A program made the translations under genes and the position numbers. Shown here one piece after another: positions 2,494 to 28,563 of a stretch of DNA of 32,000 nt. Each line of letters starts with the position of its first letter. Within the stretch, counting starts at the first letter, position 1. The stretch is taken from positions 900,001-932,000 of the forward strand of contig NZ_CP011304.1 of NCBI RefSeq assembly GCF_000981785.2, read 5' to 3'. The notes under the pieces are model-generated. The model searched no databases and was not told where the DNA came from. It saw only the letters and a program-made list of their open reading frames with translations. Source of the DNA: Microcystis aeruginosa NIES-2549. GTDB lineage: Bacteria; Cyanobacteriota; Cyanobacteriia; Cyanobacteriales; Microcystaceae.

Positions 2494-4101
2494 GTGCTTT
2501 CTAGGCTAATGACTTTGACTAAAAACCCCGTGAGCAGAAACCGTCGTTTTTCCCCGCGCAATCTCTTTGAGACTTGCATGGCCCTATTGGTGTTATGTAA
2601 TTATATTCTGGTTATTTTCGATTTAACTTATATTCCCCTGCGAGATTTTTGGTTACAGGGACGCTTGCAAATAACTTTATTAAGATTTAATGAACCAATA
2701 AAACTCGGTCCGATTTCCTTTCAAGAATTACAAATACCTCCCGATAAACCCCTAGAAATTCCCTTTGTTAAAGGAATTGCTAAGTATGATGTGGTGAAAG
2801 GGATTAAACCCTATCGCAGTACCAGTGAATATTTAGATACAGTTAATAAACTTAATCAAATAATTAATCAAAAACTCTTTAACCCAGAGTTTAATCTGGG
2901 AGAATATCGCCAAGAGATTGAGAAAATTTTAGAAAATTTGCGCCAGAATAGTGTCAATATGGTCGATAATAATCCCTTTGCCTCGGCGGAGAAAACTGGG
3001 ACTTTAGAAAAGATTAAAAATAAAATGCGCTTGCGGGTTTTTAAAACAGAAAATGTTTCCGCAAAAGCAGCCTTTCAGAAGTTTTGGACTTGGGATTATC
3101 TCAGTCAAAATGGCTGGGAAAAAGAGTTGAAATTTTTCAATCAAGAAATTCAACCTTTAATAGAAACTAATTATTTTCGTCCCCTGGGAGAAGATGGGAG
3201 ACCGATAGATAACTTTGAGGCGATCGATTTTTTATTTGGTACCATCTTTTTCTGGGAATTTATGCTGAGAACTTGGTGGATTGCTCGCACTCATAAAGGC
3301 CTGCGTTGGCGCGAGGCTATGTTATGGCGATGGTATGATATTTTTCTGTTTGTTCCTATCTGGAGATGGTTGCGATTTATTCCTACCGTTATTCGCCTAG
3401 ACCAAGTTAAAATTATTAACTTAAAGTTGATTAAAGAACAGGCAGTTAAAGGTTTAGTCGCGCTAATTTCTAAAGATATTACTGAGATAATATTTCTGAG
3501 AATTATTAATCAAACACAGGAATATATTCGACGGGGACAAGTGGAGAAATTTCTCGATCAATCCCTTAGTGGTGGATATAATAATCTCAATGATACTAAT
3601 GAAGTTATCGAAATTTTTCGGTTAGTAGTTAATAGCACTGTTGATAAGGTTTTACCGCAAGTTAAACCGGAAGCAGAAGCTTTAATTAAATACAATATCG
3701 AGAAAATTCTCAGTCAAACTCCCGCTTATCAAAGCTTATTGCGATTACCCGGTATGAAAGGATTAAAAACTGACTTGAGCAATCGTCTATCTAGTCAATT
3801 GTATCAATCTTTTGTTAACATAGCGGAAAAGATTACCCAGGAAGACGAAGTTTTTGAGCGTTTATTACAGCAATTAGTCCAACGTTTCGGGCAATCTCTC
3901 GCCGGGGAATTACAATCCCGTCACAGTCTAGAAAGAATCGAGATGTTATTAATTATCTTCCTAGAAGAAGTGAAATTAAACTATGTAGAAGAATTCTCGG
4001 ATGAAGACTTAGAAACTATCCTCGAACAAACTCGCTTACTCCACTCTCAAAGTGCAGAAATTACCCCAGGAGAAACCATGAATCCTCGTCGTCTTCCCTA
4101 A
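2494..4101 (+). CDS. Membrane protein with voltage-sensor-like (S1-S4) domain and no pore module
   Basis: 535 aa, GTG start (alternative ATG at 2509). Hydrophobic S1 at aa ~25-46. S2-like IDFLFGTIFFWEFMLRTWW, S3-like WYDIFLFVPIW and S4-like RWLRFIPTVIRL at aa ~243-303. Long soluble C-terminal region with no further TM segments and no selectivity-filter motif. Confidence 0.6.
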   Translation: MLSRLMTLTKNPVSRNRRFSPRNLFETCMALLVLCNYILVIFDLTYIPLRDFWLQGRLQITLLRFNEPIKLGPISFQELQIPPDKPLEIPFVKGIAKYDVVKGIKPYRSTSEYLDTVNKLNQIINQKLFNPEFNLGEYRQEIEKILENLRQNSVNMVDNNPFASAEKTGTLEKIKNKMRLRVFKTENVSAKAAFQKFWTWDYLSQNGWEKELKFFNQEIQPLIETNYFRPLGEDGRPIDNFEAIDFLFGTIFFWEFMLRTWWIARTHKGLRWREAMLWRWYDIFLFVPIWRWLRFIPTVIRLDQVKIINLKLIKEQAVKGLVALISKDITEIIFLRIINQTQEYIRRGQVEKFLDQSLSGGYNNLNDTNEVIEIFRLVVNSTVDKVLPQVKPEAEALIKYNIEKILSQTPAYQSLLRLPGMKGLKTDLSNRLSSQLYQSFVNIAEKITQEDEVFERLLQQLVQRFGQSLAGELQSRHSLERIEMLLIIFLEEVKLNYVEEFSDEDLETILEQTRLLHSQSAEITPGETMNPRRLP

Positions 4102-4208
4102 AAATTAGCGATCATTGATTAGCTAATATTGCTTGATTTTTTGATCACTTTTCTAGTAATATATATGCTGAAGACCCGATTACTCAATTAACCTAATTAT
4201 CTACTCCT

Positions 4209-4847
4209 ATGTTAACAAAAATTATTCTCGGGTTACTTTGGTTAGGCTTCGGATTATACGCTTTTTTACTAGCACCCCCTGATCAACCAGATACAATAAA
4301 TTTAATTATCGATCTTTCCACTGGAAAATGGCAAAATATTAACCCGTTAATTATCTCTCTTTTCAACCTGATGGGAGTTTGGCCACTTATCTACACTAGC
4401 CTTTTAATTATCGATGGTCGTGACCAAAAAATCATCGCTTGGCCCTTTACTTTTGCCTCCTTTGCCGTGGGTGCTTTCGCTATTTTACCCTATCTAACTC
4501 TCCGTCAACCCAACAGCAATTTTACCGGTAAAAAAAATCTGGTCATTAAACTTTTAGACTCACCTTGGTTGGGAGTAATTGCCCTAATTACTGCGGCAAT
4601 TTTAATCGCTTACGGATTAATTAACGGCAATTGGTCTGATTTTTGGCATCAGTGGCAAACTAGCCGTTTTATTCATGTTATGAGTTTAGATTTCTGTCTT
4701 TTAACCCTATTATGTCCAATTTTGCTGCAAGATGATCTAACCCGACGGGGGTTAAAAAATCCTTTCCTGTTGCCGGTAATTTCCCTTTTGCCTCTAATCG
4801 GTCCGGCAATTTATTTAATTATTCGTCCTCGCTTAGGGGAGAATTAA
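4209..4847 (+). CDS. Integral membrane protein, unknown function
   Basis: 212 aa with about six hydrophobic segments. No catalytic motif recognised. Confidence 0.6.
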   Translation: MLTKIILGLLWLGFGLYAFLLAPPDQPDTINLIIDLSTGKWQNINPLIISLFNLMGVWPLIYTSLLIIDGRDQKIIAWPFTFASFAVGAFAILPYLTLRQPNSNFTGKKNLVIKLLDSPWLGVIALITAAILIAYGLINGNWSDFWHQWQTSRFIHVMSLDFCLLTLLCPILLQDDLTRRGLKNPFLLPVISLLPLIGPAIYLIIRPRLGEN

Positions 4848-4977
4848 GAGTAAATTTTCTTGAGCAAACTTAACTATTTCTTGACAAGAGAAGTTCATAT
4901 TTAACAGAAATTATGCTGAGGTTCCCCTAAAATATGAGGAAAGAGATTAATGTCCAGATTAGAAGGAGTGTTTAACC

Positions 4978-5271
4978 TTGTTAGAGAGTCAAAAACCCCC
5001 TCGGATTTACTGCTTTCAGGCTGATTATCTTGCCTGCCAACAATTTAACCCCCAAGAGATTCCCGCTTGGTTATCCTTAGAAGTAAACTGGCAGGGTTAT
5101 AGAATTCATACCCTACCCTGGGTAGCAGACGTAGCTAGGGTATTAGGATTATTAGCGATCGAAGATACCCCCCAAGGGTGGCAAGATTATTTAGAAAGCT
5201 TGGGATTAGCCAAAATTAGGTTAATGGACAGCGAGGAGTTTTTTGAGGATAAATCTTTATCGGGATGTTAG
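4978..5271 (+). CDS. Hypothetical protein (97 aa)
   Basis: Only a TTG start is available, but it is preceded by AAGGAG (4963-4968) at 9-nt spacing. The ORF abuts the phosphatase gene. Confidence 0.45.
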   Translation: MLESQKPPRIYCFQADYLACQQFNPQEIPAWLSLEVNWQGYRIHTLPWVADVARVLGLLAIEDTPQGWQDYLESLGLAKIRLMDSEEFFEDKSLSGC

Positions 5272-5318
5272 AAATGCCCTATAATTGGCAATTTAGTGAT
5301 GATTCTACCAGTGAATTT

Positions 5319-5792
5319 ATGCCCTATAAACTACTCTTCGTCTGTTTAGGAAATATCTGTCGTTCTCCCGCTGCCGAGAATATCATGACTTATCTGATTG
5401 AACAAGAAGGATTAGGTAATAAAATCCTCTGTGATTCTGCGGGGACTGCCGGTTATCATATCGGTTCTCCTCCCGATTCTCGCATGAATACGGCGGCCAA
5501 AAAACGCGGTATTCCTCTGCAAGGGACAGCCAGACAATTTACCCGCGAGGATTTCGATAATTTTGATCTAATCCTAGCCATGGATAAATCCAATTATCAA
5601 GATATTTTATCCCTAGATCGGACAGGAAAATATCAAGAAAAGGTCAAGTTAATGTGTGACTATGCTCGTTATCACCCAGAAAAAGAAGTTCCCGATCCCT
5701 ACTACGGTGGTCGTGAAGGTTTTGACCGCGTAATCGAGCTACTTTTAGACTCCTGTGGCAGTCTTTTGGAGGAAGTAAAAAACAAAATTTAA
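5319..5792 (+). CDS. Low-molecular-weight protein-tyrosine phosphatase
   Basis: CX5R(S) P-loop LFVCLGNICRSPAAE and the DPYYG acid loop. ATG 5319 (MPYKLLFVCLGN) gives the typical 157-aa length. The ORF is open back to 5265. Confidence 0.9.
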   Translation: MPYKLLFVCLGNICRSPAAENIMTYLIEQEGLGNKILCDSAGTAGYHIGSPPDSRMNTAAKKRGIPLQGTARQFTREDFDNFDLILAMDKSNYQDILSLDRTGKYQEKVKLMCDYARYHPEKEVPDPYYGGREGFDRVIELLLDSCGSLLEEVKNKI

Positions 5793-5806
5793 GTTTTTTC
5801 TTTCAG

Positions 5807-6463
5807 CTAATCGATTAATCTATGTTCAAGGGAAAAACGAACCAATTCAGCCCGATTGTTAGTATTGGTTTTTCTGAGTAAACTGCTAACATATTTCTCG
5901 ATCGTGCGAGAACTAAGATGCAGTTTTTGCCCAATTTCACTGTTAGAAAGTCCCCGGGCTAAATGTTCTAACACTTCCCGCTCGCGATTAGTTAACTTAA
6001 AATCGTCCTGTAAAGAAGAAGTTAAAACATCCCTAGTTTTGGGGCTTTCTTCTGGTTTTAATTTCTGATATTGACGTTCGCTTTGCACCATTTGCGCTCG
6101 CTCTAAAAGATTGCGAATAACCGCTTTTAATTCCTCCATCTCAAAAGGTTTAGGAAGATAGATATCACAACCCACTTGATAACCGCGAATTCTTTCTTCT
6201 GTTGACCCTCTTTCGGTTAAAAAAATTACTGGTAATAACCTAAATTCTGGCTGTTGCCGCACCTTAGTCACCAAAGAATAACCGTCTAAACGCGGCATTT
6301 TTATATCCGATACCAAAAGATGAGGATGATAGGTATCCAATAAATTCAAAGCTTCCAAACCATTACTCGCCGCTACCACACTATAACCTGCTAATTCTAA
6401 ATAGTCTTTGACTGCTAGGCGGATACCGGGGTCATCATCGGCAATTAGAATCAAAAGAGGCAT
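5807..6463 (-). CDS. Response regulator, NarL/FixJ (LuxR-type HTH) family
   Basis: Receiver domain (ILIADDDPG ... SDIKMP ... KPF) plus C-terminal LuxR HTH (LTNREREVLEHLARGLSNSEIGQKLHLSSRTIEKY). ATG 6463 (MPLLILIADDD) fits the receiver-domain start. The ORF extension to 6535 is probably spurious. Confidence 0.9.
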   Translation of the reverse strand: MPLLILIADDDPGIRLAVKDYLELAGYSVVAASNGLEALNLLDTYHPHLLVSDIKMPRLDGYSLVTKVRQQPEFRLLPVIFLTERGSTEERIRGYQVGCDIYLPKPFEMEELKAVIRNLLERAQMVQSERQYQKLKPEESPKTRDVLTSSLQDDFKLTNREREVLEHLARGLSNSEIGQKLHLSSRTIEKYVSSLLRKTNTNNRAELVRFSLEHRLID

Positions 6464-7877: not shown

Positions 7878-8630
7878 ATGTTACTTTCTGCCAAAGGATT
7901 ATCGAAAAGTTTTGGAGGCATTCGCGCCGTCAATAATGCTTATTTGGATGTGCCGCAAGGCAGCATCACCGGGTTAATCGGACCAAATGGAGCCGGAAAA
8001 ACTACACTTTTTAACCTTTTATCTAATTTTATTCGCCCGGATAAAGGGGAAGTTTTTCTTGATGGTCAGCCCATTCATCAGCTGCCTCCCTATCAAATTG
8101 CCCTAAAAGGATGTGTGAGAACTTTTCAAGTAGCCAGGGTATTATCCCGATTAACGGTGTTAGAAAATATGCTCTTAGCTAGTCCTGGACAAACGGGCGA
8201 AAATTTTCTCAAAGTCTGGTTTCAGGGGGCAAAAATTCGCCAACAGGAACAGGAAAATCGTGCCAAAGCTTTGGACATATTAGATTCGATCGGTCTGGGG
8301 GAAAAAGCGCACGATTATGCGGGAGCTTTATCGGGAGGACAGCGTAAATTATTAGAGATTGGCCGAGCGCTAATGACCGAGCCAAAATTAATTTTATTAG
8401 ATGAACCTGCCGCTGGAGTTAATCCCACTTTAATCGGTCAAATCAGCGACCATATTATTGAATGGAATCGTCAGGGAATTACCTTTTTAATTATCGAGCA
8501 TAATATGGATGTGATTATGTCCCTTTGTCACTACGTTTGGGTATTAGCAGAAGGGACAAATTTAGCCGATGGCATTCCCAGCGAAATCCAAAAAAACGAG
8601 CGGGTTTTAAAGGCTTATTTAGGAGACTAA
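7878..8630 (+). CDS. natA: Branched-chain/neutral amino-acid ABC transporter ATP-binding protein (LivG/NatA-like)
   Basis: Walker A GPNGAGKTT, FGGIRAVNN LivG-type N-terminus, signature LSGGQRKLLEI and Walker B LILLDEP. Confidence 0.85.
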   Translation: MLLSAKGLSKSFGGIRAVNNAYLDVPQGSITGLIGPNGAGKTTLFNLLSNFIRPDKGEVFLDGQPIHQLPPYQIALKGCVRTFQVARVLSRLTVLENMLLASPGQTGENFLKVWFQGAKIRQQEQENRAKALDILDSIGLGEKAHDYAGALSGGQRKLLEIGRALMTEPKLILLDEPAAGVNPTLIGQISDHIIEWNRQGITFLIIEHNMDVIMSLCHYVWVLAEGTNLADGIPSEIQKNERVLKAYLGD

Positions 8631-9257
8631 AGCTAATTTTTGCACCTGTTGAACAAAGTTAGCCAGAATTTTTAAGCCATTAGTCGAGGATTTTTCCGGG
8701 TGAAACTGCACCGCCACCAAACGATCACGAGCGATCGCTGCTGTCACCGTTTGACTGCCGTGGCTGACGGTGGCGGCAGTCAGATGACTATCAAGGGGAT
8801 CAACATAATAGGAATGGACAAAATAGACGTGAGGATGCGGGGGTAATCCCTGCCAAAGAGCATGATCCGGCTGGGTGAAGTCTAACTGATTCCAACCCAT
8901 GTGGGGAATAGTAATGCCAGGTTCCGAGCGAAAACGGCGCACTGTCCCCGGAATAATCCCTAAACCCGCCTCTTGACCTTCCTCTGATGAGTCAAAGAGA
9001 ATTTGTAAACCGAGACAGATACCGAGAAAGGGTTTACCATTAGCGATCGCCGCTTTGATCGGTTTTTCGAGATGACGAGCGCGAATTTGCCGGACGGCAG
9101 GATCAAAAGAACCGACTCCGGGTAACACAATAGCGTCAGCTTTTTCGAGATCTAGGGGAGAATCGGTAATTTTCGGCACTGCACCCACGGTTTCCAGTCC
9201 TTTACAGGCAGAGTGCAGATTTCCCATGTCATAATCGATGACAGCGATTAAGGTCAT
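8619..9257 (-). CDS. hisH: Imidazole glycerol phosphate synthase, glutamine amidotransferase subunit HisH
   Basis: IAVIDYDMGNLHS, GVGSF, catalytic GICLGLQ, QFHPEKS. The 3' end overlaps the convergent natA-like gene by 12 nt. Confidence 0.95.
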   Translation of the reverse strand: MTLIAVIDYDMGNLHSACKGLETVGAVPKITDSPLDLEKADAIVLPGVGSFDPAVRQIRARHLEKPIKAAIANGKPFLGICLGLQILFDSSEEGQEAGLGIIPGTVRRFRSEPGITIPHMGWNQLDFTQPDHALWQGLPPHPHVYFVHSYYVDPLDSHLTAATVSHGSQTVTAAIARDRLVAVQFHPEKSSTNGLKILANFVQQVQKLALVS

Positions 9258-9543
9258 TGCTATATACTGATCAGGCGATGACCTTATTTTAGAGCAATCA
9301 CACTACTAAATTAGCCCTTGAATCAAAAGTTGTTAAATGGGATTTGAACCCGCAACCGGCTACTTACAAATCAGCCCTGCATAATTGATAAAACCCTTTT
9401 CCCACAACAAACACAGGGCCATCTCAATCCTTGACAACCGCTTTCGCCAGAATTACAGCCAGCCGAGAGATTGTCTTCCCTAGTCGATGAACATCTGGTT
9501 AAACTTCATCTTGATGAGAAAAGCTGTAACACAACTAAAGTTT

Positions 9544-10584
9544 TTAAATTGAATAATCGATAACTTTCTCACTTTTATTGTCAAAATCAGTGAGTAGGGT
9601 CGCTTTTCTCGGTTTTAAATGTACCGTTTGTTCTGGTTGTAACTGTAATTGCTTGTATTCCTCTCGATTGAGGTAAGCTACCACCATTTCCCCATCAGCT
9701 AACATTAATTCTACCTGTATTTCCCAGCCTAAATGAATAACTCTTTTTACCACTGCCCAACTATTCAACCCATCTTGATTGGGCATAATTTCGAGGTCGT
9801 GGGGACGGATAAAAACGGTGGAATTATCCCCCGGATGATGTCCATTTCCTAATCCTGCTAAACTGGGTAAGATATTCACTTCCCCAATAAACTGCATCAC
9901 AAAAGGTGTGGCTGGATGATCGTAAATTTCGGCGGGAGAACCCACCTGTTCAATTTTACCATGATTCATCACAACAATCGTATCGGCCACTTCCATTGCT
10001 TCCTCTTGATCGTGGGTAACAAAAACACTGGTAACGTGAACTTCTTCGTGTAAATTTCTCAGCCATACCCTTAATTCTTTTCTAACTTTTGCATCTAAAG
10101 CTCCAAAGGGTTCATCTAATAATAATACATTCGGTTGAATGGCTAAAGCGCGGGCTAAAGCTACTCGCTGCCGTTGTCCTCCCGATAATTGGGCGGGGTA
10201 GCGATCGCCTAATCCTTGTAATTGAATTAATTCTAATAGTTCCTCAACTTTTTTCTTAATTACTGGCGATTTTTGCTGGCGAATTTCTAGCCCAAAAGCA
10301 ATATTTTGACGAACAGTTAAATGTTTAAATAGGGCATAATGTTGGAAAACAAAGCCTATATTTCTCCGTCTAGGATCAAGATGGGTGGTATCTTGTCCGT
10401 TAATGATAATTGCGCCACTATCGGGAGTTTCTAATCCCGCAATTGAACGTAATAAGGTGGATTTTCCCGATCCCGATGGTCCGAGAAGGGCGACTAATTT
10501 GCCTTCAGGAATGGTTAAACTGATATTATCTAAGGCTTGAAAATTGCCGAAACGTTTAGAAACTTGCTGGATGATAATACTCAT
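9544..10584 (-). CDS. cysA: Sulfate/thiosulfate ABC transporter ATP-binding protein CysA
   Basis: Walker [36 protein letters not shown] and a C-terminal TOBE-like region. ATG 10584 ([12 protein letters not shown]) is the plausible start. The upstream 17 codons lie in a palindromic repeat. Confidence 0.92.
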
Positions 10585-15513: not shown

Positions 15514-16068
15514 ATGAGACGAACGATCCTTTTTTTACTGTTTTTTCCGGCTAGTTTAGGCATAATCTCCCAAGTATTCTCACCGGAAAACCTATCCGCT
15601 GCTATTCTTGCCCTAGGTACCCTGGTGATGTGTATGGAACAGGCACGCATGGCAGCGGTGGACTTGGCAGAAATTGCCCAATTTCAGCAAAAAACCAGCG
15701 ATCCTCGCCTCGATCGCTTTTTTATAGTTACAATTAGTACAATTGTTTTAGAATTAGCGGGCTTTTATCTGGCTGCCCTCTGGATAGGATGGGGAGCTTT
15801 AATAGTTTTAGTTAGTCAAATTTGGTTTCATTGTTTAGCCAAAATTCAACTGCAGCCAAGCACGGGAAAAATTATTGACCATGGCATAGGGCCACGTTTA
15901 CCCATCTTACTCGCTGACGGAATCGGCATAATCTTCGTGGCTTTCTGGTTAGCCAAAATTGCCACCCTAATTATGGCCATGACTTTAACGACAATGTTAT
16001 TAATCTACGGCTCTATTAAGTATAGACCTCTTGTCAAAATCAAAAATCTTCCCTTGGTTGAGGAGTAG
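15514..16068 (+). CDS. Integral membrane protein, unknown function
   Basis: 184 aa with 4-5 hydrophobic segments. The start is uncertain (internal Met codons MCMEQARM). Confidence 0.5.
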   Translation: MRRTILFLLFFPASLGIISQVFSPENLSAAILALGTLVMCMEQARMAAVDLAEIAQFQQKTSDPRLDRFFIVTISTIVLELAGFYLAALWIGWGALIVLVSQIWFHCLAKIQLQPSTGKIIDHGIGPRLPILLADGIGIIFVAFWLAKIATLIMAMTLTTMLLIYGSIKYRPLVKIKNLPLVEE

Positions 16069-16245
16069 GTAGCCAGTATTCGGTCGTCAGGAGAATCAAA
16101 AATGAGCTTTAATCAATTAAATTCTCTATTTAGAGATTTTATGCCTATTTTTCTCATTTTTGAACTCTCAAAAATTAATTATCGTTGAGCTTGCCGCTAG
16201 AGGATTTGAGCGCATTTTTCTCTCAGACATCAGCCCTCCTTTGCT

Positions 16246-16268
16246 AAAATGATAATCATTATCATTTT
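16246..16268. promoter_or_regulatory. Fur-family (Zur-type) operator, perfect 11-1-11 palindrome
   Basis: AAAATGATAATCATTATCATTTT. The core TGATAATCATTATCA (16250-16264) equals the 7-1-7 Fur-family consensus. It ends 8 nt before the thrS ATG and overlaps TAAAAT (16245-16250). Confidence 0.7.
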
Positions 16269-16276
16269 AACTGGCA

Positions 16277-18133
16277 ATGGTCAATCAAATTAAGTCCCCC
16301 CTGGCAGAAAGCCCCGTTATCCAAGAAGATTCGCAAAAAATAGTAAAAATACGCCATACTTGCGCCCATATCTTAGCGATGGCCGTACAAACTCTCTTTC
16401 CTGAAACCAAAGTCGCTATTGGTCCCTGGACAGAAACGGGATTCTACTACGATTTTGATCGCCCAACACCCTTTACCCCCGAAGATTTGGAGAAAATAGC
16501 GGCAGAAATGGGGCGAATTATCGGGCAAAACCTGCCAATTATCCGAGAAGTGCTGGAAAGAAGCGAAATTACCGCAGAAATCGAGCGCCTTAATCAACCC
16601 TACAAAAAGTTAATTTTAGAGAGAATTCCCCCAGATGAAACCATTACCCGTTATTTTATCGGTAGTCCGGACGCAGGACGGAGCGATCGAGAACCCTCGT
16701 TAATTGATGGTGCTGTTTCTCCCCCAGAAGAATTTTGGTGGGATCTGTGCGCGGGACCCCATCTCAACTCGACGGGGGAAATTAACCCAGATGCTTTCGT
16801 CTTGGAGAGTGTAGCGGGTGCTTATTGGCAAGGAGATGAAAAACAGCCGCAATTACAGCGAATTTACGGCACAGCTTGGCAAACCCCCGCAGAATTACAA
16901 AATTATCTCCAACAAAAAGAAGAAGCGCAGCGACGAGATCATCGCAAATTGGGACAACAATTAAAATTATTTAGCATCCAAGAAGATGCCGGTGGCGGCT
17001 TAGTTTTTTGGCATCCCCGGGGTGCAACAATGCGTTATTTAATCGAAGATTATTGGCGCCAAGCTCATTTAGAAGCGGGTTATCAATTTCTTTATACTCC
17101 CCATCTAGCTAATTTAGATCTGTGGAAAACTTCTGGACATTGGGACTTTTATCGCGACAATATGTTTGAGGCGATCGAGTTAGAACAGCAAAGCTATCAA
17201 ATTAAGCCGATGAATTGTCCTTTTCATGTTTTAACCTATCAAAATGACCTGCATTCCTATCGAGAATTTCCCCTCAGATGGGCAGAATTAGGCACAGTTT
17301 ATCGTTACGAGCGATCGGGGGTTTTACACGGATTAATGCGGGTGCGAGGTTTTACTCAAGATGATGCTCATATTTTTTGTTTGCCAGAACAAATTGCCGC
17401 AGAGATTCTAGGAGTTTTGAATTTAACCGAGAAAATTCTCTCCGATTTTGGCTTTACTAATTATCAGATAAATTTATCGACTCGTCCCAGTAAATCAGTG
17501 GGTAGTGATAGTGTTTGGGAATTGGCAACGGCGGCTCTAATTGAGGCCTTAAATGCTAAAAAGTGGGATTATATTGAGGATCAGGGAGGTGGGGCTTTTT
17601 ATGGTCCGAAAATTGATATAAAAATTCAAGATGCGATCGGTAGAATGTGGCAATGTTCCACGATTCAGGTCGATTTTAACTTGCCAGAACGCTTTGATAT
17701 GCAATATGTCGCTAGGGATGGTAGTCGCGAAAGACCGATTATGATTCATCGAGCTATTTTTGGCTCTTTGGAAAGATTTTTTGGTATTTTAATCGAGAAT
17801 TATGCGGGAGATTTTCCTCTCTGGTTAGCACCTATTCAAGTCCGTTTATTACCCGTTAGTGATGAACAGCAGCATTATGCTTTAGGGGTGGCAATGCAGT
17901 TAAAACAAGCTGGTTATCGAGTGGAAATCGATAAAAGTGGTGAGCGTTTAGGTAAACAAATTCGTACAGGAGAACTAGAAAAAATACCTGTCTTAGCTGT
18001 GATTGGAAAACGAGAAGTTAGCAGTAAAACTCTAAGTGTTCGCACTCGACAAGGGGGTGATTTAGGTTCGATGACGCTGGCAGATTTATTAGAAAAAATG
18101 CAAACAGCGATCCTATCTAAAACTAATCTCTGA
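16277..18133 (+). CDS. thrS: Threonyl-tRNA synthetase (no N-terminal TGS domain)
   Basis: Editing-domain HxxxH (HTCAH, aa 27-31) and DLCAGPH. Class II catalytic core with zinc ligands in MNCPFH, QDDAHIF, IMIHRA. C-terminal anticodon-binding domain. Confidence 0.96.
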   Translation: MVNQIKSPLAESPVIQEDSQKIVKIRHTCAHILAMAVQTLFPETKVAIGPWTETGFYYDFDRPTPFTPEDLEKIAAEMGRIIGQNLPIIREVLERSEITAEIERLNQPYKKLILERIPPDETITRYFIGSPDAGRSDREPSLIDGAVSPPEEFWWDLCAGPHLNSTGEINPDAFVLESVAGAYWQGDEKQPQLQRIYGTAWQTPAELQNYLQQKEEAQRRDHRKLGQQLKLFSIQEDAGGGLVFWHPRGATMRYLIEDYWRQAHLEAGYQFLYTPHLANLDLWKTSGHWDFYRDNMFEAIELEQQSYQIKPMNCPFHVLTYQNDLHSYREFPLRWAELGTVYRYERSGVLHGLMRVRGFTQDDAHIFCLPEQIAAEILGVLNLTEKILSDFGFTNYQINLSTRPSKSVGSDSVWELATAALIEALNAKKWDYIEDQGGGAFYGPKIDIKIQDAIGRMWQCSTIQVDFNLPERFDMQYVARDGSRERPIMIHRAIFGSLERFFGILIENYAGDFPLWLAPIQVRLLPVSDEQQHYALGVAMQLKQAGYRVEIDKSGERLGKQIRTGELEKIPVLAVIGKREVSSKTLSVRTRQGGDLGSMTLADLLEKMQTAILSKTNL

Positions 18134-18246: not shown

Positions 18247-19278
18247 ATGAGTTCTTTGATAATTCCTCTCTCCGATTCCCTCCCTTGCTTGCCTAAATCG
18301 GGAATGCCTGTGACGATTATTACTGGTTTTTTAGGCAGTGGAAAAACCACTTTACTAAATCATATTCTTGACAATAAAGAAGGTTTAAAAGTTGCCGTTT
18401 TAGTCAATGAGTTTGGGGATATTAATATTGATTCTCAATTGCTTGTTTCCATCGATGAAGATATGGTAGAATTGAGTAATGGCTGTATTTGTTGTACAAT
18501 TAATGATAGTTTAATTGAGACAGTCTATCAGGTCTTAGAAAAAGAAATACCCGTGGACTATCTAATCATTGAAACCACAGGATTAGCCGATCCTTTGCCA
18601 ATTATCCTCACTTTCTTAGCCACGGAATTAAAATATCTGACTCGCTTAGATTCTATTATTACCCTCGTGGATTCTGAAACCTTTACTGCTGATCATTTTG
18701 ATAGTAATATTGCCCTTAGTCAAATTCGTTATGGTGACGTGGTAATTCTCAATAAAATAGATCGAGTAAGTGGCAAAAAATTAGATGATTTAGAAAAGTT
18801 TATTCGTCGGGAAAAAGAGGGTATAAGACTCCTAAAAAGTAGTTATGGTCAGGTTCCTTTGGGTTTATTGTTAGATCTAGGTTTAACTAAAGAAGAATTG
18901 TATAAAGTCCAGTTGAGAGACTTTCAAAAAAATCGCCCAATCTCCAGTGATAATCAATCTCCTGAAGACTTTAATTTTGTCTCCTTTGTTAGCGATAAAC
19001 CATTTAATCTAGATAAATTTGAACCTTTTCTCACGGAAAAAATGCCGATAAATGTTTTTCGAGCAAAAGGGATTCTCTGGTTTCAACAAAGCGATTTAAA
19101 ACATATTTTTCAATTGAGCGGTCTTCGTTACGATCTGCAAGCGGTAGAATGGGATACATCTCCTAATAATCAGTTAGTTTTTATCGGCAGAAATTTAAAT
19201 AAAGAGGAAATCTTGACACAACTAAACGAATGCTTGGCTAGTTCTCAAAAAATTAAAAAGGACAAACTAAGTAGGTAG
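18247..19278 (+). CDS. COG0523-family G3E GTPase metallochaperone (CobW/ZigA/YeiR-like)
   Basis: Walker A GFLGSGKTT (aa 27-35), metal motif CICC (C80-x-C82-C83), ETTGLADP, NKID and a CobW_C-like C-terminal domain. The last 3 codons plus the stop lie inside a MITE end. Confidence 0.9.
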   Translation: MSSLIIPLSDSLPCLPKSGMPVTIITGFLGSGKTTLLNHILDNKEGLKVAVLVNEFGDINIDSQLLVSIDEDMVELSNGCICCTINDSLIETVYQVLEKEIPVDYLIIETTGLADPLPIILTFLATELKYLTRLDSIITLVDSETFTADHFDSNIALSQIRYGDVVILNKIDRVSGKKLDDLEKFIRREKEGIRLLKSSYGQVPLGLLLDLGLTKEELYKVQLRDFQKNRPISSDNQSPEDFNFVSFVSDKPFNLDKFEPFLTEKMPINVFRAKGILWFQQSDLKHIFQLSGLRYDLQAVEWDTSPNNQLVFIGRNLNKEEILTQLNECLASSQKIKKDKLSR

Positions 19279-19371
19279 GTGTTAAAAGTTTTCAGACACC
19301 CCCCTTATCAAGGGGGGCAGGGGGGATCGAACCTAAAATCCATTTTTAATTTAATTATAACCAGCTACTTA
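19268..19371. mobile_element. MITE copy 1 (~100 bp; imperfect terminal inverted repeats, TA flanks)
   Basis: TA-AGTAGGTAGG...CACCCCCCTTATCAAGGGGGG hairpin...CCAGCTACT-TA. The same element occurs at 22148 and 27509. Confidence 0.85.
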
Positions 19372-19651
19372 TGAATAATTTATGGATAAAAACTTTAAAA
19401 TTTAACGAACCCTCGATCCAATGGTTTTACGTCTCTTTGTTCTCCAAGCTCATTATCGCAAACCCTTGCACTTTACGGAAGCGGCGATCACAATTAAAAA
19501 TGATGGGAATTATCTTAGTTGATTTACCCGATGGACAAAGCCAATGGTATCCTAGAGAAAAGAGCCATAACCATGATTAATACCGCAAGAAACCGCCAAT
19601 TTTTCCCAAAATAACCTTGCTAAGTCTAGAGGATTGGTTAAGGAAGATTAC

Positions 19652-19688
19652 TTGCCCCAATCTAACTTATGCTAGAATGATTATCATT
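19652..19688 (+). promoter_or_regulatory. Putative promoter with overlapping Fur/Zur-like 6-1-6 palindrome
   Basis: TTGCCC (19652-19657), 15-nt spacer, extended -10 TGCTAGAAT (19670-19678). The palindrome AATGATTATCATT (19676-19688) matches 12/13 nt of 16248-16260. A strong AAGGAG RBS at 19701-19706 lies 4 nt before ATG 19711. Confidence 0.5.
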
Positions 19689-19710
19689 ACCACAATAAAG
19701 AAGGAGCAAA

Positions 19711-20490
19711 ATGATTATCGTGGTGACGGGGGGTATAGCTGCGGGAAAAACCCATTGGATTCGCCAACAAATCGCCCAAAGCAAGCAGCCAAGTCTATAT
19801 TTTAGTCCCCAGACGGAAACTTTTCCCATTGATCATCTCACTTTACAGAGTGACTTTCCCCAGTTGTCCTCTATTTCTAGGGAAGAAGAAGACCTTTTGA
19901 GCAGTTTATCCATGGAAAACACGGTTTATATGGAAGTACCATGGCATTTAGACGCGCAATCCCTCGAAAGCTTTCTAAAACCCCTCAATTGTCATCGGGT
20001 AGCGATTACGTCTCCAGACGAAGAAATCCCCGAAGGACAAGTTCCCGTCGATGAAATGGTCATCAGTCCCGTCAAAACAACCATAAAAGGTGATCAATGG
20101 TTAAAAAAACGAGAAATACAGATTTATAGAGCCGTTTTAACGGGAGAAATCCTCGATTTTTCCAGTTTAACCACCTTTTGGACAGAATTAACCCAAGGGG
20201 CCTATGGGGAAGTGCTGCGGGTTAAAAGTATCTTCGATATCATCGACGGTCAGTGTATTTATGGGGAATTTATGGATGAATGGCCAGAAAAAGACTTTCA
20301 AAGCTTAAATTTCCCCTTAAATGTCGATGGGAGACCGAATCGCTTCAGTGGGATTGAAATCGTCGGTCGCAATCTCGATAAACCGACAATTGCCGATACC
20401 CTGAGTGATTGTTGTCTGTCCGATGAGGCACTTTTTTATTATCAACAACAATTTCAAGAATCTTTAGAGCCAGAAATGGAGTTAATCTGA
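19711..20490 (+). CDS. P-loop protein with CobW_C-like C-terminal domain (stripped-down COG0523 paralogue)
   Basis: Walker A VTGGIAAGKT (aa 6-14), but no CxCC motif and no NKxD. The C-terminal half parallels the upstream COG0523 protein (LRVKSIFDIIDGQ vs FRAKGILWFQQSD; IEIVGRNLDKPTIADTLSDCCL vs LVFIGRNLNKEEILTQLNECL). Its stop overlaps the next ATG (TGATG). Confidence 0.75.
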   Translation: MIIVVTGGIAAGKTHWIRQQIAQSKQPSLYFSPQTETFPIDHLTLQSDFPQLSSISREEEDLLSSLSMENTVYMEVPWHLDAQSLESFLKPLNCHRVAITSPDEEIPEGQVPVDEMVISPVKTTIKGDQWLKKREIQIYRAVLTGEILDFSSLTTFWTELTQGAYGEVLRVKSIFDIIDGQCIYGEFMDEWPEKDFQSLNFPLNVDGRPNRFSGIEIVGRNLDKPTIADTLSDCCLSDEALFYYQQQFQESLEPEMELI

Positions 20491-21299
20491 TGAAAATAGC
20501 CGTTTTATCCTGTATTCATGGCAATATGCCCGCTTTAAATGCTGTTTTGCAAGATTTAGACCAACAGGGTTGTCAAGAAATCTACTGTTTAGGGGATTTG
20601 GTTGGGTATGGACCCCATCCTAACCAAGTGGTGGAAAAAATCCGTCAACTGGGGATTACTACAGTACAAGGGTGTTGGGATGAGGATATCGTTGAGGGAT
20701 TAAATGCCTGTGAGTGCAGTTATCCGTCGCTTTTAGCAGAAAAACGCGGTAGATTAGCTCATGAGTGGACAAATCAAATAATCACCCCAGAAAACCGTAA
20801 TTATTTGTCAAAACTGCCCGAAATTTTTAAGCTAGATCACCTCTGTTTTGTTCATGGTAGTCCCCAAAATAACCATGAGTATCTTTTAGCCGAAATGGAC
20901 GCTTTTACGGCTTTAGAACGGGTTTTATCGGTAGATACAGAGGTTTTATTCTGTGGACATACCCACATCCCCTACATTCGCACTCTCGACGAGGGAAGCT
21001 TGCAAATAAAAGTGTATCAACCCGATGGGGAACAGTCGCGGCAATTTACCACACCAGTTAAACGTATCATCAACGTGGGATCGGTGGGAGAACCACGTCA
21101 CGGTCGTCCAAATGCCACCTATGTGATTTACGATCGAGAAACGGCAGCGGTACAACTGCGAGAAGTGGCCTATAACTATCAGGAAACCTGTCAGGCTATT
21201 TTAGAATCGGGTTTACCTCCTATTTTCGCTTGGCGATTGGCTAAGGGTCTAGAATATGCGGAAAAAGCCGATGATCCGACTCATGTTTGCGAACGTTAA
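20490..21299 (+). CDS. Metallophosphoesterase (YfcE/MJ0936-like) with Cys substitutions at two metal-ligand positions
   Basis: The calcineurin-like motifs are recognisable. Motif I is SCIHGN instead of SDIHGN (Cys8). Motif II is LGD (D36). Motif III is GCWDE instead of GN(Y/C)D (Cys62). Motif IV is VHGSP (H122), motif V is GHTH (157-159), then GSVGEP. Confidence 0.85.
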   Translation: MKIAVLSCIHGNMPALNAVLQDLDQQGCQEIYCLGDLVGYGPHPNQVVEKIRQLGITTVQGCWDEDIVEGLNACECSYPSLLAEKRGRLAHEWTNQIITPENRNYLSKLPEIFKLDHLCFVHGSPQNNHEYLLAEMDAFTALERVLSVDTEVLFCGHTHIPYIRTLDEGSLQIKVYQPDGEQSRQFTTPVKRIINVGSVGEPRHGRPNATYVIYDRETAAVQLREVAYNYQETCQAILESGLPPIFAWRLAKGLEYAEKADDPTHVCER

Positions 21300-21302
21300 T
21301 TT

Positions 21303-22019
21303 GTGATAAATCAAGAAATTATGTGGGCAATTTTAAGCGGTATTCAAGGCAATTTACCAGCCTATCAAGCGGTCTTGGAAGATATTCAGCAACGGTCAGT
21401 TACTGTAGAAAATTTATATATTTTAGGAGATTTTATCGGTGTTAATCCCGATAGTGAAATGCTAGTAGAACAAATACGTTATCCCACTAAAAATAACTTA
21501 TATCCGCAGGTTTGTCGGGGATGGTGGGAAGAACAATGTCTAATTTTACACAGTTTAGGAGCCACAGGAGAACCGACGGAATTAATCCATAAATATGGAA
21601 TTGATAGCACTAAACAACTCTGGGACGCAGTTTCTTTAGAAACGGTGCAATGGTTACGAAATCTCGATTTTGGTTTTGTCGAGTTGGATTGTTTATTAAT
21701 TCATGGCAGTAGTGTCAGTGTTAGTGAAGAATTAACCCCCGATACTCCCCCATGGCAAATTTTAGATCGACTGCAACGGGTGGGAGTTAATAATCTATTT
21801 TGTGGTCGTGCAGGACAAGTTTTTGATTATTCTTTACAGTCCGCTAATTTAACCAGCACTGTTACTACTTTAGATAAACGGCAACCAAGTCAAACTTTGA
21901 CGATTCAAGATAAGCGTTTAATTGGGGTTGGTAGCGTTGGTAAAGAATTAAATAAAGCAGTTTACACTCTCTATAATCCTAGTAATAATTGCGTGGAGTT
22001 TAGAACCGTACCTTATTAA
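21303..22019 (+). CDS. Degenerate metallophosphoesterase paralogue (predicted pseudoenzyme)
   Basis: Same fold signposts as the preceding gene, but motif I is SGIQGN (D and H lost), motif III is RGWWEE and motif V is GRAG (both His lost). Only LGD and IHGSS are retained. Start is GTG 21303 or ATG 21321 (MWAILSGIQGN aligns with MKIAVLSCIHGN). Confidence 0.75.
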   Translation: MINQEIMWAILSGIQGNLPAYQAVLEDIQQRSVTVENLYILGDFIGVNPDSEMLVEQIRYPTKNNLYPQVCRGWWEEQCLILHSLGATGEPTELIHKYGIDSTKQLWDAVSLETVQWLRNLDFGFVELDCLLIHGSSVSVSEELTPDTPPWQILDRLQRVGVNNLFCGRAGQVFDYSLQSANLTSTVTTLDKRQPSQTLTIQDKRLIGVGSVGKELNKAVYTLYNPSNNCVEFRTVPY

Positions 22020-22147: not shown

Positions 22148-22261
22148 GTAAGTAGGTAGGCGTTAAAAATTATCAGACACCCCCCTTATCAAGGGGGGAC
22201 TAAGGGGGGATTAAGGGGGGATCAAGGGGGGATTTATCTTCAACTTAATTATAACCAGCTA
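22148..22261. mobile_element. MITE copy 2 (right end diverged; internal G-rich 10-mer expansion)
   Basis: TA-AGTAGGTAGGCGTTAAAAATTATCAGACACCCCCCTTATCAAGGGGGG, followed by (AAGGGGGGAT-like) x3-4, then ...TTAATTATAACCAGCTA. The final CTA is the complement of the methyltransferase TAG stop. Confidence 0.8.
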
Positions 22262-23242
22262 GATAACTGAGGTAAGAGACTCTTGCTGACTTGCTTGCAG
22301 ATGGGATTTAGCGCGAACAGCGCGGAACATCCCAAAACGACATAAACCCGTACCAAAGGCCAAACGCATCAGCAGAATTGTCGGCACTTCTCGGACGGAT
22401 TTAACCAACCCAGTTAGACCAAATTGCCACCAACCTTGGGGACGAATCACCCCCTGCCAAATGGTATCAATCCAAGAGGGTAGAGTGGCTTTTGTCCAGT
22501 CAGCAGTCACCACTTCCCCATCTACCAATCCCGTGGCCGCTAACTGTTCGGCAAAACCTTCGATACTGGCAAAAGCGGGGTGGGACCACTGATCCAAAAG
22601 TTGGCGCATTACAGGACTTTCCCAGAAATTGAGCGGTTTTTGACGGTCATCTCGCTGATTCCAGTCCGCTACCACTAGGACTCCCCCCGGCTTAAGAACT
22701 CGCAGTAATTCCTGAGCAAAAACGGCTTTGTCCGGCATATGGGGACCGGCTTCAATTGACCAGACCACATCAAAACTCTCGTCGGGAAAAGAAAGGGCCA
22801 TGGCATCATCGACCAAAAAGCGAGCATTTACATCTGGGGGTGTTAGTTCTTTGGCCCGTGCCACTTGTTTGGGACTAATGGTGACACCGGTAACGGCAAA
22901 TCCGTAGTCGCGGGCCAGAATGCGACTGCTGCCACCAATACCACAACCGACATCGAGGAGAGTTGCACCGGCGGGTAGTTTATCCAAACCTCCCCAAGAG
23001 ACCATTTCCGCCACAAAGTCGGCTTTTGCCTGTAGAAAGTCTTTTTTTTCTGGTGGGGAACCGTAGTGACCTAAATGGATGTGTTCGCCCCAATAATATT
23101 CTAAAATCCCGTCCTCGGTCCATTGGTCGTAGGAATTGGCCACCGAGTCCGACGATTGGTACTTGCGAGAGGAAACAAAATAGACGACGATAGCGATCGC
23201 TAGGAGTAAACCTAAAGATGATGTCACCAAAAGTATATTCAT
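22259..23242 (-). CDS. SAM-dependent methyltransferase, MPBQ/MSBQ (tocopherol/plastoquinone pathway, Synechocystis sll0418-like)
   Basis: N-terminal TM segment, then YQSSDSVANSYDQWTEDGILEYYWGEHIHLGHYG, SAM motif LLDVGCGIGGSS and VLKPGGVLVVADW. ATG 23242 (MNILL) is preferred over the TTG at 23269. The specific substrate call is from remembered similarity. Confidence 0.8.
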   Translation of the reverse strand: MNILLVTSSLGLLLAIAIVVYFVSSRKYQSSDSVANSYDQWTEDGILEYYWGEHIHLGHYGSPPEKKDFLQAKADFVAEMVSWGGLDKLPAGATLLDVGCGIGGSSRILARDYGFAVTGVTISPKQVARAKELTPPDVNARFLVDDAMALSFPDESFDVVWSIEAGPHMPDKAVFAQELLRVLKPGGVLVVADWNQRDDRQKPLNFWESPVMRQLLDQWSHPAFASIEGFAEQLAATGLVDGEVVTADWTKATLPSWIDTIWQGVIRPQGWWQFGLTGLVKSVREVPTILLMRLAFGTGLCRFGMFRAVRAKSHLQASQQESLTSVI

Positions 23243-26794: not shown

Positions 26795-26923
26795 GAGCGA
26801 TCGAGTTAAAATAGGTAAGTGAAAATAATTATATTCTTTAATGATAGAGATGGTTTTAAAAGAAAAAGTAAAAAAAGACCATTACTGTAAAAATTTCCCG
26901 ATCCCCTCTTTTCTTTGAAAATT

Positions 26924-27457
26924 ATGACCCCACAGTTAATTGAAATTCTCTCGGCTGACGAAATTCGTCGCACCATTACCCGTTTAGCTTCCGAAGTTAT
27001 CGAAAAAAGTGGCGATTTAAATAACTTGATTTTGATCGGTATCTACACGCGAGGAGTGCCTTTAGCTAATTTAATTGCTAATCAAATTGAGAGCTTAGAA
27101 GGGGTAAAAGTTCCCGTAGGAGCGATCGATATTACCTTCTATCGCGACGATCTTGATCGCATTAAAACCCGCACTCCTGCTAAAACCAAAATGCCCCTAG
27201 ATGTCACGGGAAAAACCGTGATTTTAGTCGATGATGTTATCTATAAAGGTCGCACAATCCGCGCCGCTTTTAATGCTATTATTGAGTATGGCAGACCGCA
27301 AAAAATCCGCTTATTAGTTCTCGTTGATCGTGGTCATCGGGAATTACCAATTCACCCAGATTTTACTGGCAAAAAACTCCCCACCGCAGCCGAGGAACAG
27401 GTCAGAGTTTATCTACAGGAGATTGACGGCAAAGATGGGGTGGAATTAATCAAATAA
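26924..27457 (+). CDS. pyrR: Bifunctional pyrimidine regulatory protein / uracil phosphoribosyltransferase PyrR
   Basis: [22 protein letters not shown] and PRPP motif [20 protein letters not shown] 26924 is preferred; the ORF is open from TTG 26915. Confidence 0.93.
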
Positions 27458-27508: not shown

Positions 27509-27650
27509 TAAGTAGGTAGGCGTTAAAAATTATCAGACACCCCCCTTATCAAGGGTAGGGTTGATTCATGAATCAACCCTACCTTATCAGGGGGGGCAGG
27601 GGGTATCGAACCTAAAATCCATTTTTAATTTAATTATAACCAGCTACTTA
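27509..27650. mobile_element. MITE copy 3 carrying a nested palindromic insertion
   Basis: Same termini as copy 1 (TA-AGTAGGTAGG ... CCAGCTACT-TA). The central CCCCCCTTATCAAGGGGGG hairpin is interrupted by a 28-nt palindrome. Confidence 0.85.
27555..27582. repeat. 28-nt perfect palindromic element nested in the MITE
   Basis: GTAGGGTTGATTCATGAATCAACCCTAC is its own reverse complement. It is flanked by duplicated CTTATCA. Confidence 0.85.
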
Positions 27651-27669
27651 ATAGCCACAAAAATAGCAC

Positions 27670-27780: not shown

Positions 27781-28563
27781 TTAGGGCAAGGTAAAAGCAG
27801 CAATTACAGGATAATGATCGGAGGGAATAAGATTCAACCAACGGCAAGGATCGACTTTTGCCCAATCTAACTGCAAACGGCTATCATAATAAATGGTATC
27901 GATGGCTAAATAGGGGGTATCGGTGTAATTATTAAAGCTCATTTGTTCCGCTAATTCCAAATCGGCTAAAGCATCCTTTAATTTAATTTCTGACTGGAGA
28001 GGTTGAGTTAAAATCTGACGGGGTAATTGCTGAGAATTAACATTAAAATCACCTGTTAAAAATAGGTAATCTTTTGTTAAATCTAGTTGACAAAAACGCT
28101 CCTGTATGCACTTAGCACCTAAGTCCTTAGCTTTGTCGCTATAGTAATCGAGATGGGTGTTATAAAACTGTAAAGTTTGCCCCTCAAGAGTGCGAAATTT
28201 AGCCCCCGTTACCATGCGGGGATAAGGATTACCCCAAGCTTCGGTAATACTGCCAATAATATCGGGAGTTTCTGATAACCAAAATTCGTAAATTTCCAAA
28301 CATTTCAACCGACTTGGTTGATACAAAATCGCACAATGTTCATCTAATCCTGTTCCCCTGCGATCGCTTCCTAAACTTTGGTATTTTGGCAATAAACGGT
28401 GTAGATCCAATAGTTGATTAGCGCGAGCTTCCTGAGTACCAATTATATCGGGAGAATAGTGAGCAATTAAAGCCGCGACTGCTTCCCTTCTTACTCGCCA
28501 ATTACGCTCATCGGGATCGGGTTTATCGTAGCGAATATTAAAGGACATCGCTGTTAGTTTCAT
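27781..28563 (-). CDS. Endonuclease/exonuclease/phosphatase (EEP) family protein
   Basis: MSFNIRYD, GTQE, NTHLD, GDFN and C-terminal SDHYPV motifs of the EEP fold. Confidence 0.85.
   Translation of the reverse strand: MKLTAMSFNIRYDKPDPDERNWRVRREAVAALIAHYSPDIIGTQEARANQLLDLHRLLPKYQSLGSDRRGTGLDEHCAILYQPSRLKCLEIYEFWLSETPDIIGSITEAWGNPYPRMVTGAKFRTLEGQTLQFYNTHLDYYSDKAKDLGAKCIQERFCQLDLTKDYLFLTGDFNVNSQQLPRQILTQPLQSEIKLKDALADLELAEQMSFNNYTDTPYLAIDTIYYDSRLQLDWAKVDPCRWLNLIPSDHYPVIAAFTLP

Follow-up and report, generated by a model that had tools for sequence, protein, structure and literature searches.

Why would a gene for an aminoacyl-tRNA synthetase begin directly behind what looks like the binding site of a metal-sensing repressor? 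The question is raised by a 32-kb stretch of the Microcystis aeruginosa NIES-2549 genome (32,000 nt of contig NZ_CP011304.1, hereafter "the window," with positions counted from its first letter), in which a perfect palindrome immediately precedes thrS, a gene encoding threonyl-tRNA synthetase (ThrRS). We propose that the zinc-loaded form of the Fur-family repressor Zur very probably represses a two-gene low-zinc unit, made up of this gene (thrS2) and a downstream COG0523 gene, by covering its promoter.

A predicted Zur operator upstream of thrS

The palindrome, AAAATGATAATCATTATCATTTT, was read directly from the sequence at positions 16246 to 16268, and 8 nt (AACTGGCA) separate it from the thrS ATG at 16277. 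The original prediction had described an exact 23-nt palindrome of 11-1-11 symmetry at this distance from the start codon. The sequence agrees, and one further pair extends the symmetry to 12-1-12 (TAAAATGATAATCATTATCATTTTA, 16245 to 16269). No perfect palindrome with an odd center is longer in the window, and among palindromes of any kind this one ranks second in length. The core had likewise been called identical to the 7-1-7 consensus of the Fur family, and indeed TGATAATCATTATCA at 16250 to 16264 has no mismatch to TGATAATNATTATCA. No other place in the 32 kb matches this consensus with zero or one mismatch. When up to three mismatches were allowed, the window held 16 matches, compared with 3.15 ± 1.88 in shuffled sequences, and none of 100 shuffles reached the observed count. 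On the basis of symmetry, weight-matrix score, and boxes at orthologous loci, we annotate 16245 to 16269 (no strand) as a predicted Zur operator that contains the 23-nt Zur box and its 7-1-7 core.

We scored the box with a symmetrized weight matrix built from 11 nonredundant sites among 14 predicted cyanobacterial Zur 23-mers (Haas et al. 2009, PMC2770081, Additional file 5, where upper case marks consensus bases). The training set consisted exclusively of published sites, none of which came from the Microcystis source organism. Positions 16246 to 16268 scored 31.43 of a maximum of 31.5 bits, exceeding all 11 training sites, and every one of the 23 positions, flanks included, carries the consensus base of the cyanobacterial Zur motif. 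As a chance control, we simulated the window 300 times with a first-order Markov model. The best simulated score was 18.9 bits, the mean of the maxima was 10.8 bits, and no simulation reached 31.43. The core is also identical to the Anabaena Zur-binding site upstream of alr3242, which is the top-scoring site in Table S3 of PMC10957091. Anabaena Zur specifically binds a 7-1-7 palindrome (Napolitano 2012, via PMC3323870), and it binds the Anabaena thrS2 promoter, Pall4723, with a Kd of 7 nM (PMC6103462).

The region is AT-rich and short inverted repeats are frequent in promoter regions, both of which would suit a chance palindrome without function. Against such a coincidence stand the 31.4 bits observed versus the simulated maximum of 18.9, the failure of all 100 shuffles to reach the match count, and the equivalent sites kept at the same place in nine other lineages. 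This conservation effectively refutes the idea, to which we assign next to no probability. Lower matrix scores are another matter. Two matches of about 15.8 bits, at 1359 to 1381 and 18419 to 18441, were ruled out as sites and lie within coding sequence; the second belongs to a conserved part of the COG0523 coding sequence (encoding DINIDSQL), which recurs in a 98%-identical relative and in Planktothrix. Because two intragenic sequences score this high, matrix scores near 15 bits are unreliable by themselves.

Which member of the Fur family would occupy the box? The B. subtilis-type Fur box, a 7-1-7 element (TGATAATnATTATCA), has the same 15-nt core, which is the classical Fur consensus, and NCBIfam leaves the FUR-family neighbor of the Allocoleopsis thrS2 gene without a subtype. 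Another Fur paralogue, either FurA (iron) or the PerR-like FurC (peroxide), could on this account be the main binder, and thrS would respond to iron or oxidative stress. We consider this unlikely. All 23 positions fit a motif that is specific to Zur, and the Fur and Zur motifs of cyanobacteria differ significantly in RegPrecise (via PMC3323870). Furthermore, the neighbors of thrS here and at orthologous loci are zinc genes (COG0523, znuA, folE, and hemB), and the Anabaena orthologue is experimentally under Zur and zinc control. Since flanks as well as core match, and since the Fur and Zur motifs differ, 16246 to 16268 is, judged by its sequence, a Zur box rather than only a generic Fur-family box. 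This supports the original prediction, which had called a Fur-family operator and suggested Zur. The box may already be recorded in a database such as RegPrecise, because the cyanobacterial Zur motif there drew on a Microcystis genome (PMC3323870).

A T2-type synthetase and its T1 counterpart

The gene behind the box (16277 to 18133, + strand) encodes a ThrRS of 618 amino acids (aa) without the N1/TGS domain, annotated from Pfam, NCBIfam, and alignments. ATG 16277 is the first start codon of the open reading frame ending at 18133, and this start is confirmed by the conserved beginning of homologues (ATGGTCA, MV(S/N)). The product contains the Pfam domains tRNA_SAD, tRNA-synt_2b, and HGTP_anticodon, matches NCBIfam TIGR00418 at 706 bits, and belongs to a 90%-identity cluster of 471 proteins, all named members of which are from Microcystis.

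Anabaena is described as having two ThrRS paralogues, of which T1 is constitutive and essential, while thrS2 (T2) is repressed by Zur from a promoter directly upstream and co-transcribed with the COG0523 gene all4722 (Rubio 2015, PMC4787780). According to the same source, T1 has two insertions in the catalytic domain, b (6 aa) and c (3 aa), that T2 lacks, and a 20-aa insertion a (residues 128 to 147, beside C154/H158) is found in T2 only. Both HxxxH and DxCRGPH are conserved in T2. Editing is accurate in T1 and impaired in T2, where it is improved by deleting insertion a, and this insertion is reported only where both paralogues coexist.

To place the window protein, we retrieved 80 related loci and aligned 24 cyanobacterial ThrRS proteins. 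The window ThrRS lacks insertions b and c and is 72 to 82% identical to T2-clade proteins, compared with about 50 to 56% identity to T1. It has 24 residues between G129 and WW154-155, where T1 has 2, which amounts to a 22-aa insertion. The codons of this insertion a (16664 to 16729, + strand, from alignments; approximately residues 130 to 151, SPDAGRSDREPSLIDGAVSPPE) belong to the N2 editing domain and immediately precede WWDLCAGPH. Relative to E. coli ThrRS (1QF6), there are about 21 extra residues at this place, and the N1/TGS domain is missing. The position agrees with that of insertion a in Anabaena T2, the adjacent residues C154/H158 corresponding to C158/H162 in the window protein. Among the best 120 homologues, 111 could be parsed, and all 111 have 22 to 34 residues at the insertion position. 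Because insertions b and c are absent, the 22-aa insertion is present, and the identity is to the T2 clade, the gene is by sequence thrS2, encoding a T2-type ThrRS. The suggestion of a stress-specific paralogue like Anabaena T2 therefore gains support from clade membership and hallmarks alike.

The original prediction had also listed HTCAH, DLCAGPH, and three zinc ligands as present in the sequence. We located the editing motifs at residues 27 to 31 and 156 to 162, respectively, and the zinc-ligand contexts KPMNC314, DDAH365, and MIH491 align with E. coli ThrRS 1QF6; C314, H365, and H491 are invariant in the T1/T2 alignment. The implied contrast with T2 on the strength of intact editing motifs is mistaken, because Anabaena T2 conserves HxxxH and CxxxH too, its defect being attributed to insertion a (Rubio 2015).

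Could this nevertheless be the sole or main ThrRS of the cell, an essential housekeeping synthetase placed under Zur control? Its intact editing motifs and zinc ligands would suit that role, and with 32 kb in view, the second gene was seen in the genus and not in the source strain. The original prediction had asked whether there is a second thrS, and at the genus level a T1-type ThrRS exists. A search with a T1 profile (Snowella/Crocosphaera) brought up numerous T1-type Microcystis proteins of 599 aa, from M. aeruginosa Sj, KW, and CS-555/01A07, M. wesenbergii, M. panniformis, and Microcystis sp. MC19, along with a RefSeq entry labeled MULTISPECIES [Microcystis]. A T1 search with a Xenococcaceae query gave no Microcystis among the matches listed, the large clusters being Pleurocapsales. 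One of the Microcystis T1 proteins, 54% identical to the window ThrRS, has insertions b (EESASK) and c (DKY) and lacks insertion a. Such T1 hallmarks in many strains, the report of a long insertion a only alongside coexisting paralogues (Rubio 2015, PMC4787780), and the lack of a Zur box where T2-clade loci carry a short insertion or none (Pseudanabaena and Cyanobium) make a sole ThrRS very improbable.

At the Microcystis locus that encodes the 54%-identical T1 protein (CP142375.1), nothing in 9.8 kb reaches 10 bits on the Zur matrix, and the best score in the 134-nt region between T1 thrS and a divergent znuA-family gene is 3.2 bits. At the genus level, Microcystis thus appears to pair a box-free T1 gene with a Zur-boxed T2 gene, as Anabaena does. 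Matches to TGATCAAAATCATCA at about +262 of T1 genes are coding sequence (KIINRK) and were not taken as operators. At the same T1 locus (2946 to 5800), thrS is arranged divergently to a gene for a ZnuA-family solute-binding protein, and a cobW-family gene follows 1.4 kb further on. Because no Zur-like site of at least 10 bits occurs there, a metal other than zinc may be what the transporter and cobW genes handle. A literature search on thrS duplication or Zur in Microcystis found nothing specific.

Conservation of the operator and the proposed low-zinc unit

We scored the thrS upstream regions of all loci with the independent matrix of published sites. Of the 12 loci tabulated as long-insertion T2, the window included, 10 have a strong Zur box (21.8 to 31.4 bits) ahead of thrS2. 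The window box scores highest (31.4 bits, 8 nt from the ATG), followed by those of the 98%-identical relative (29.2 bits, 8 nt), which retains the box with a single change in the flank, Calothrix (28.5 bits, 8 nt), Phormidesmis (28.3 bits, 14 nt), Leptolyngbyaceae (28.0 bits, 10 nt), Allocoleopsis (26.8 bits, 11 nt), Nostoc (25.6 bits, 137 nt), the locus L001 (23.8 bits, 5 nt), Planktothrix (23.8 bits, 8 nt), and Limnospira (21.8 bits, 9 nt). Close spacing between box and ATG is therefore usual for the thrS2 family (5 to 14 nt in 9 of 12 loci). The remaining two loci lack a box directly upstream of thrS2: Gloeocapsa has one of 17.9 bits before the preceding, overlapping gene, and Chroococcidiopsis has none and carries an insertion sequence (IS) element upstream. 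None of 13 T1 loci scored has a Zur box (best score, 6.3 bits), nor does any of five loci from the T2 clade whose insertion is short or missing (Pseudanabaena and Cyanobium; best score, 0.3 bits).

The surroundings of these genes point to zinc limitation. A COG0523 gene lies on the same strand within about 3.2 kb downstream of thrS2 in L001, Nostoc, Calothrix, and Leptolyngbyaceae, adjacent to it in Nostoc only. Genes around thrS2 include folE, cobW, and hemB in Gloeocapsa and, in Phormidesmis, cobW, WD40, SufE, folE, and two copies of znuA. In the window, a gene for a COG0523 G3E GTPase of the CobW/ZigA-like type (343 aa; 18247 to 19278, + strand) begins 113 nt past thrS2. It was annotated from Pfam (cobW, 182.5 bits; CobW_C, 73 bits), and NCBIfam ranks the zinc chaperone ZigA first, with scores below the equivalog cutoffs of both ZigA and CobW. 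Motif and matrix scans of the 113-nt gap found no Zur-like site, and by analogy with Anabaena, the two genes are probably co-transcribed. The gene upstream of thrS2 (15514 to 16068) encodes an unrelated membrane protein and is free of a box.

Several of the orthologous loci have features of their own. In Allocoleopsis franciscana, a 135-aa FUR-family gene (5485 to 5892) lies directly upstream of thrS2 and has its own Zur-like box (5398 to 5420, 19.6 bits). Its position and box suggest an autoregulated zur beside its target; a comparison with NCBIfam assigned it to none of Zur, Fur, and PerR. In Chroococcidiopsis, a DDE transposase gene (4901 to 6016) abuts thrS2 and the Zur box upstream is gone, while in Limnospira an IS605-type TnpB gene (4118 to 5719) lies just upstream and the box is kept 9 nt from the ATG. 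The thrS2 locus seems to have undergone repeated remodeling by mobile elements.

How would the box act on transcription? As the original prediction had noted, the palindrome overlaps a −10-like hexamer. This TAAAAT occupies 16245 to 16250 (+ strand) at the left edge of the operator, and we predict that it is the −10 element from its register in orthologous boxes. In all five thrS2 boxes examined, as well as in a second site in the window described below, a TAnnnT hexamer ends at box position 5, and the Limnospira box has TAAAAT at the matching place. Because the motif itself fixes A at position 1 and T at position 5, this recurring register is only suggestive as evidence for a −10 element. At mapped promoters of Anabaena, Zur sites and −10 boxes overlap (PMC10957091). 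With TAAAAT as the −10 element, the leader would be about 20 nt long and have no Shine-Dalgarno sequence. The claim that there is no room for a conventional leader thus stands in part: the leader is predicted to be short, but the transcript is not necessarily leaderless.

A palindrome this close to the AUG might instead work mainly as RNA, forming a hairpin in a transcript from an upstream promoter and controlling translation or stability. If transcribed in full, the region would fold at −12.9 kcal/mol (z = −3.4), with pairing up to the GGCA before the AUG. However, such a fold follows from any perfect DNA palindrome, and the orthologous boxes are imperfect palindromes that preserve the consensus bases of Zur and not the pairing. 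The hairpin matches no Rfam family, and a scan of the window with Rfam found no leader RNA at thrS2. In addition, the predicted start inside the box would remove the 5′ arm, and the Nostoc-type locus has its box 137 nt from the ATG. We accordingly give a role as RNA very little credence.

Repression by Zur is the reading that we favor; for Microcystis, we infer that Zur binds the box, where transcription starts, that the two genes are co-transcribed, that zinc scarcity induces them, and how the product edits and oligomerizes. When zinc is sufficient, a zinc-loaded Zur dimer would sit on the 7-1-7 core and its flanks, covering TAAAAT and the predicted start near 16257, inside the box, so that RNA polymerase is excluded. 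When zinc becomes scarce, Zur would give up its sensing zinc and leave the DNA, allowing synthesis of a thrS2-COG0523 mRNA with the short leader predicted above. By analogy with Anabaena, T2 would keep its dimeric, active form at low zinc, while the housekeeping T1 would lose zinc and dissociate. T2 would be poor at editing Ser-tRNAThr and depend on T1 subunits in heterodimers; poor editing is expected because of the 22-aa insertion in the editing domain.

Several observations weigh against this account. The core equals the generic Fur 7-1-7 consensus, which taken alone is compatible with another Fur paralogue. We looked for a Fur-family gene among the genes of the window and found none in the 32 kb. 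The coexistence of T1 is established for the genus Microcystis, not for the source strain itself. A consensus promoter scan found no canonical −35/−10 pair on the + strand at the site, and the −10 assignment consequently rests on the comparison of orthologous sites. Finally, the T2 protein of L001 has an insertion of just 5 aa, and its gene is still accompanied by a box and a COG0523 gene. The length of the insertion and control by Zur therefore do not always go together.

Farther downstream, the window contains a second, weaker Zur-like box, AGAATGATTATCATTACCACAAT (19674 to 19696, no strand; 15.7 bits), with TAGAAT at 19673 to 19678, 14 nt before an ATG at 19711. Of 300 simulations, 9 reached 15.7 bits. 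By score the box is weak evidence, given that two intragenic sites score alike. Its intergenic place, the same −10 register, and boxes before the orthologous gene in Gloeocapsa and Planktothrix support it. The ATG opens a unit of three genes on the + strand (19711 to 22019), which encode a P-loop protein with a faint CobW_C-like tail (19711 to 20490), a metallophosphoesterase whose closest PDB entry is 3RQZ and which has distant ApaH/Ap4A-hydrolase-like matches (20490 to 21299), and a degenerate phosphoesterase-like protein (21303 to 22019). The trio also adjoins thrS2 in Gloeocapsa (7895 to 10193; box, 15.3 bits) and Planktothrix (3478 to 5951; box, 18.5 bits), and it is possibly an undescribed module of the Zur regulon. 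A bolder proposal, which we regard as unlikely, is that the second box controls the trio, whose products might assist T2, for instance by metallating it or by clearing dinucleotide polyphosphates or other side products that arise once T2 takes over, and that the thrS2 operator, serving as nearly the whole leader, belongs to the same low-zinc design.

Between the COG0523 gene and the second box, a 38-codon frame (19406 to 19519, + strand), which begins RTLDPMVLRLFVLQAHYRKPLHFTEAAIT, matches the end of the catalytic domain of cysteinyl-tRNA synthetase (CysRS; PF01406, E = 4.7e-4, below the gathering score), and it is probably a remnant of cysS. CysRS, too, is a zinc enzyme, and other bacteria have paralogues of it under Zur control. 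A cysS gene lies near thrS2 in Allocoleopsis. A repeat of about 105 nt resembling a miniature inverted-repeat transposable element (MITE) occurs in three copies (19268 to 19372, 22149 to 22266, and 27509 to 27651), with pieces that are 90 to 97% identical and a GC-rich hairpin (CCCCCCTTATCAAGGGGGG). In the COG0523 gene, the three final codons and the stop come from the first copy, and copies 1 and 2 flank the cysS remnant and the three-gene unit. The sole Rfam match in the window, to U4atac (19298 to 19389, E = 0.14), falls within this repeat and was dismissed as noise. The longest palindrome of the window, a perfect 30-nt sequence (GGTAGGGTTGATTCATGAATCAACCCTACC, 27554 to 27583), is inside the third copy, between the convergent genes 26915 to 27457 (+ strand) and 27781 to 28563 (− strand). 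Possible explanations are an insertion into the repeat and a terminator acting in both directions.

Relation to known Zur-regulated systems

These results extend the Zur/thrS2/COG0523 system of Anabaena to Microcystis, the main freshwater bloom-forming cyanobacterium. The pairing of operator and gene is conserved over at least 10 lineages, and the distance from the operator to the start codon is almost constant. If the proposed regulation holds, the thrS2 transcript or protein could mark zinc limitation in blooms, and Microcystis is predicted to tolerate some mischarging of Ser for Thr under zinc stress. As a perfect consensus site, the box would also be a convenient positive control for studies of Zur binding. 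The current picture of Zur regulons and duplicated synthetases stays unaltered.

The closest known system is thrS2 of Anabaena sp. PCC 7120 (all4723, T2), with its promoter Pall4723 in the low-zinc operon all4725-all4721 (Napolitano 2012; Rubio 2015, PMC4787780). Zur binding, zinc induction, and enzymology are already published for Pall4723-thrS2-all4722, of which the Microcystis locus is the counterpart. Both have a T2-clade ThrRS with an insertion of about 20 aa before DxC.GPH and without insertions b and c, a Zur 7-1-7 box directly upstream, a COG0523 gene immediately downstream, and a separate T1 gene elsewhere, in Microcystis at the genus level. In contrast to Anabaena, Microcystis belongs to another cyanobacterial order and is unicellular and bloom-forming, and the system is known here from sequence. 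The Microcystis unit contains only thrS2 and the COG0523 gene, with no hemB2 upstream and no folE downstream, and its upstream gene is the unrelated membrane protein without a box. The operator also differs, being a perfect consensus palindrome 8 nt from the ATG, compared with 137 nt in the one Nostoc locus examined.

Like published cyanobacterial Zur boxes (Haas 2009, PMC2770081; RegPrecise; Napolitano 2012), the window site has a start codon within 50 nt and adjoins a COG0523 gene. Natural sites are normally imperfect, whereas this one outscores 11 of 11 training sites. The B. subtilis-type Fur box differs in both regulator and metal, the context in the window being zinc and not iron; in cyanobacteria, the same core with AAAA/TTTT flanks is the Zur motif. 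More broadly, Zur controls a range of zinc-independent or zinc-sparing paralogues, including L31/S14, FolE2, HemB2, PyrC2, DksA2, and proteobacterial CysRS and ThrRS (Haas 2009, PMC2770081). The Microcystis unit resembles these in combining a duplicate of a zinc-dependent protein with a COG0523 protein, both of which would be turned on by derepression of Zur. Unlike the zinc-independent paralogues, however, T2 retains its three zinc ligands, and the advantage of T2 in Anabaena is a dimer that is active at low zinc.

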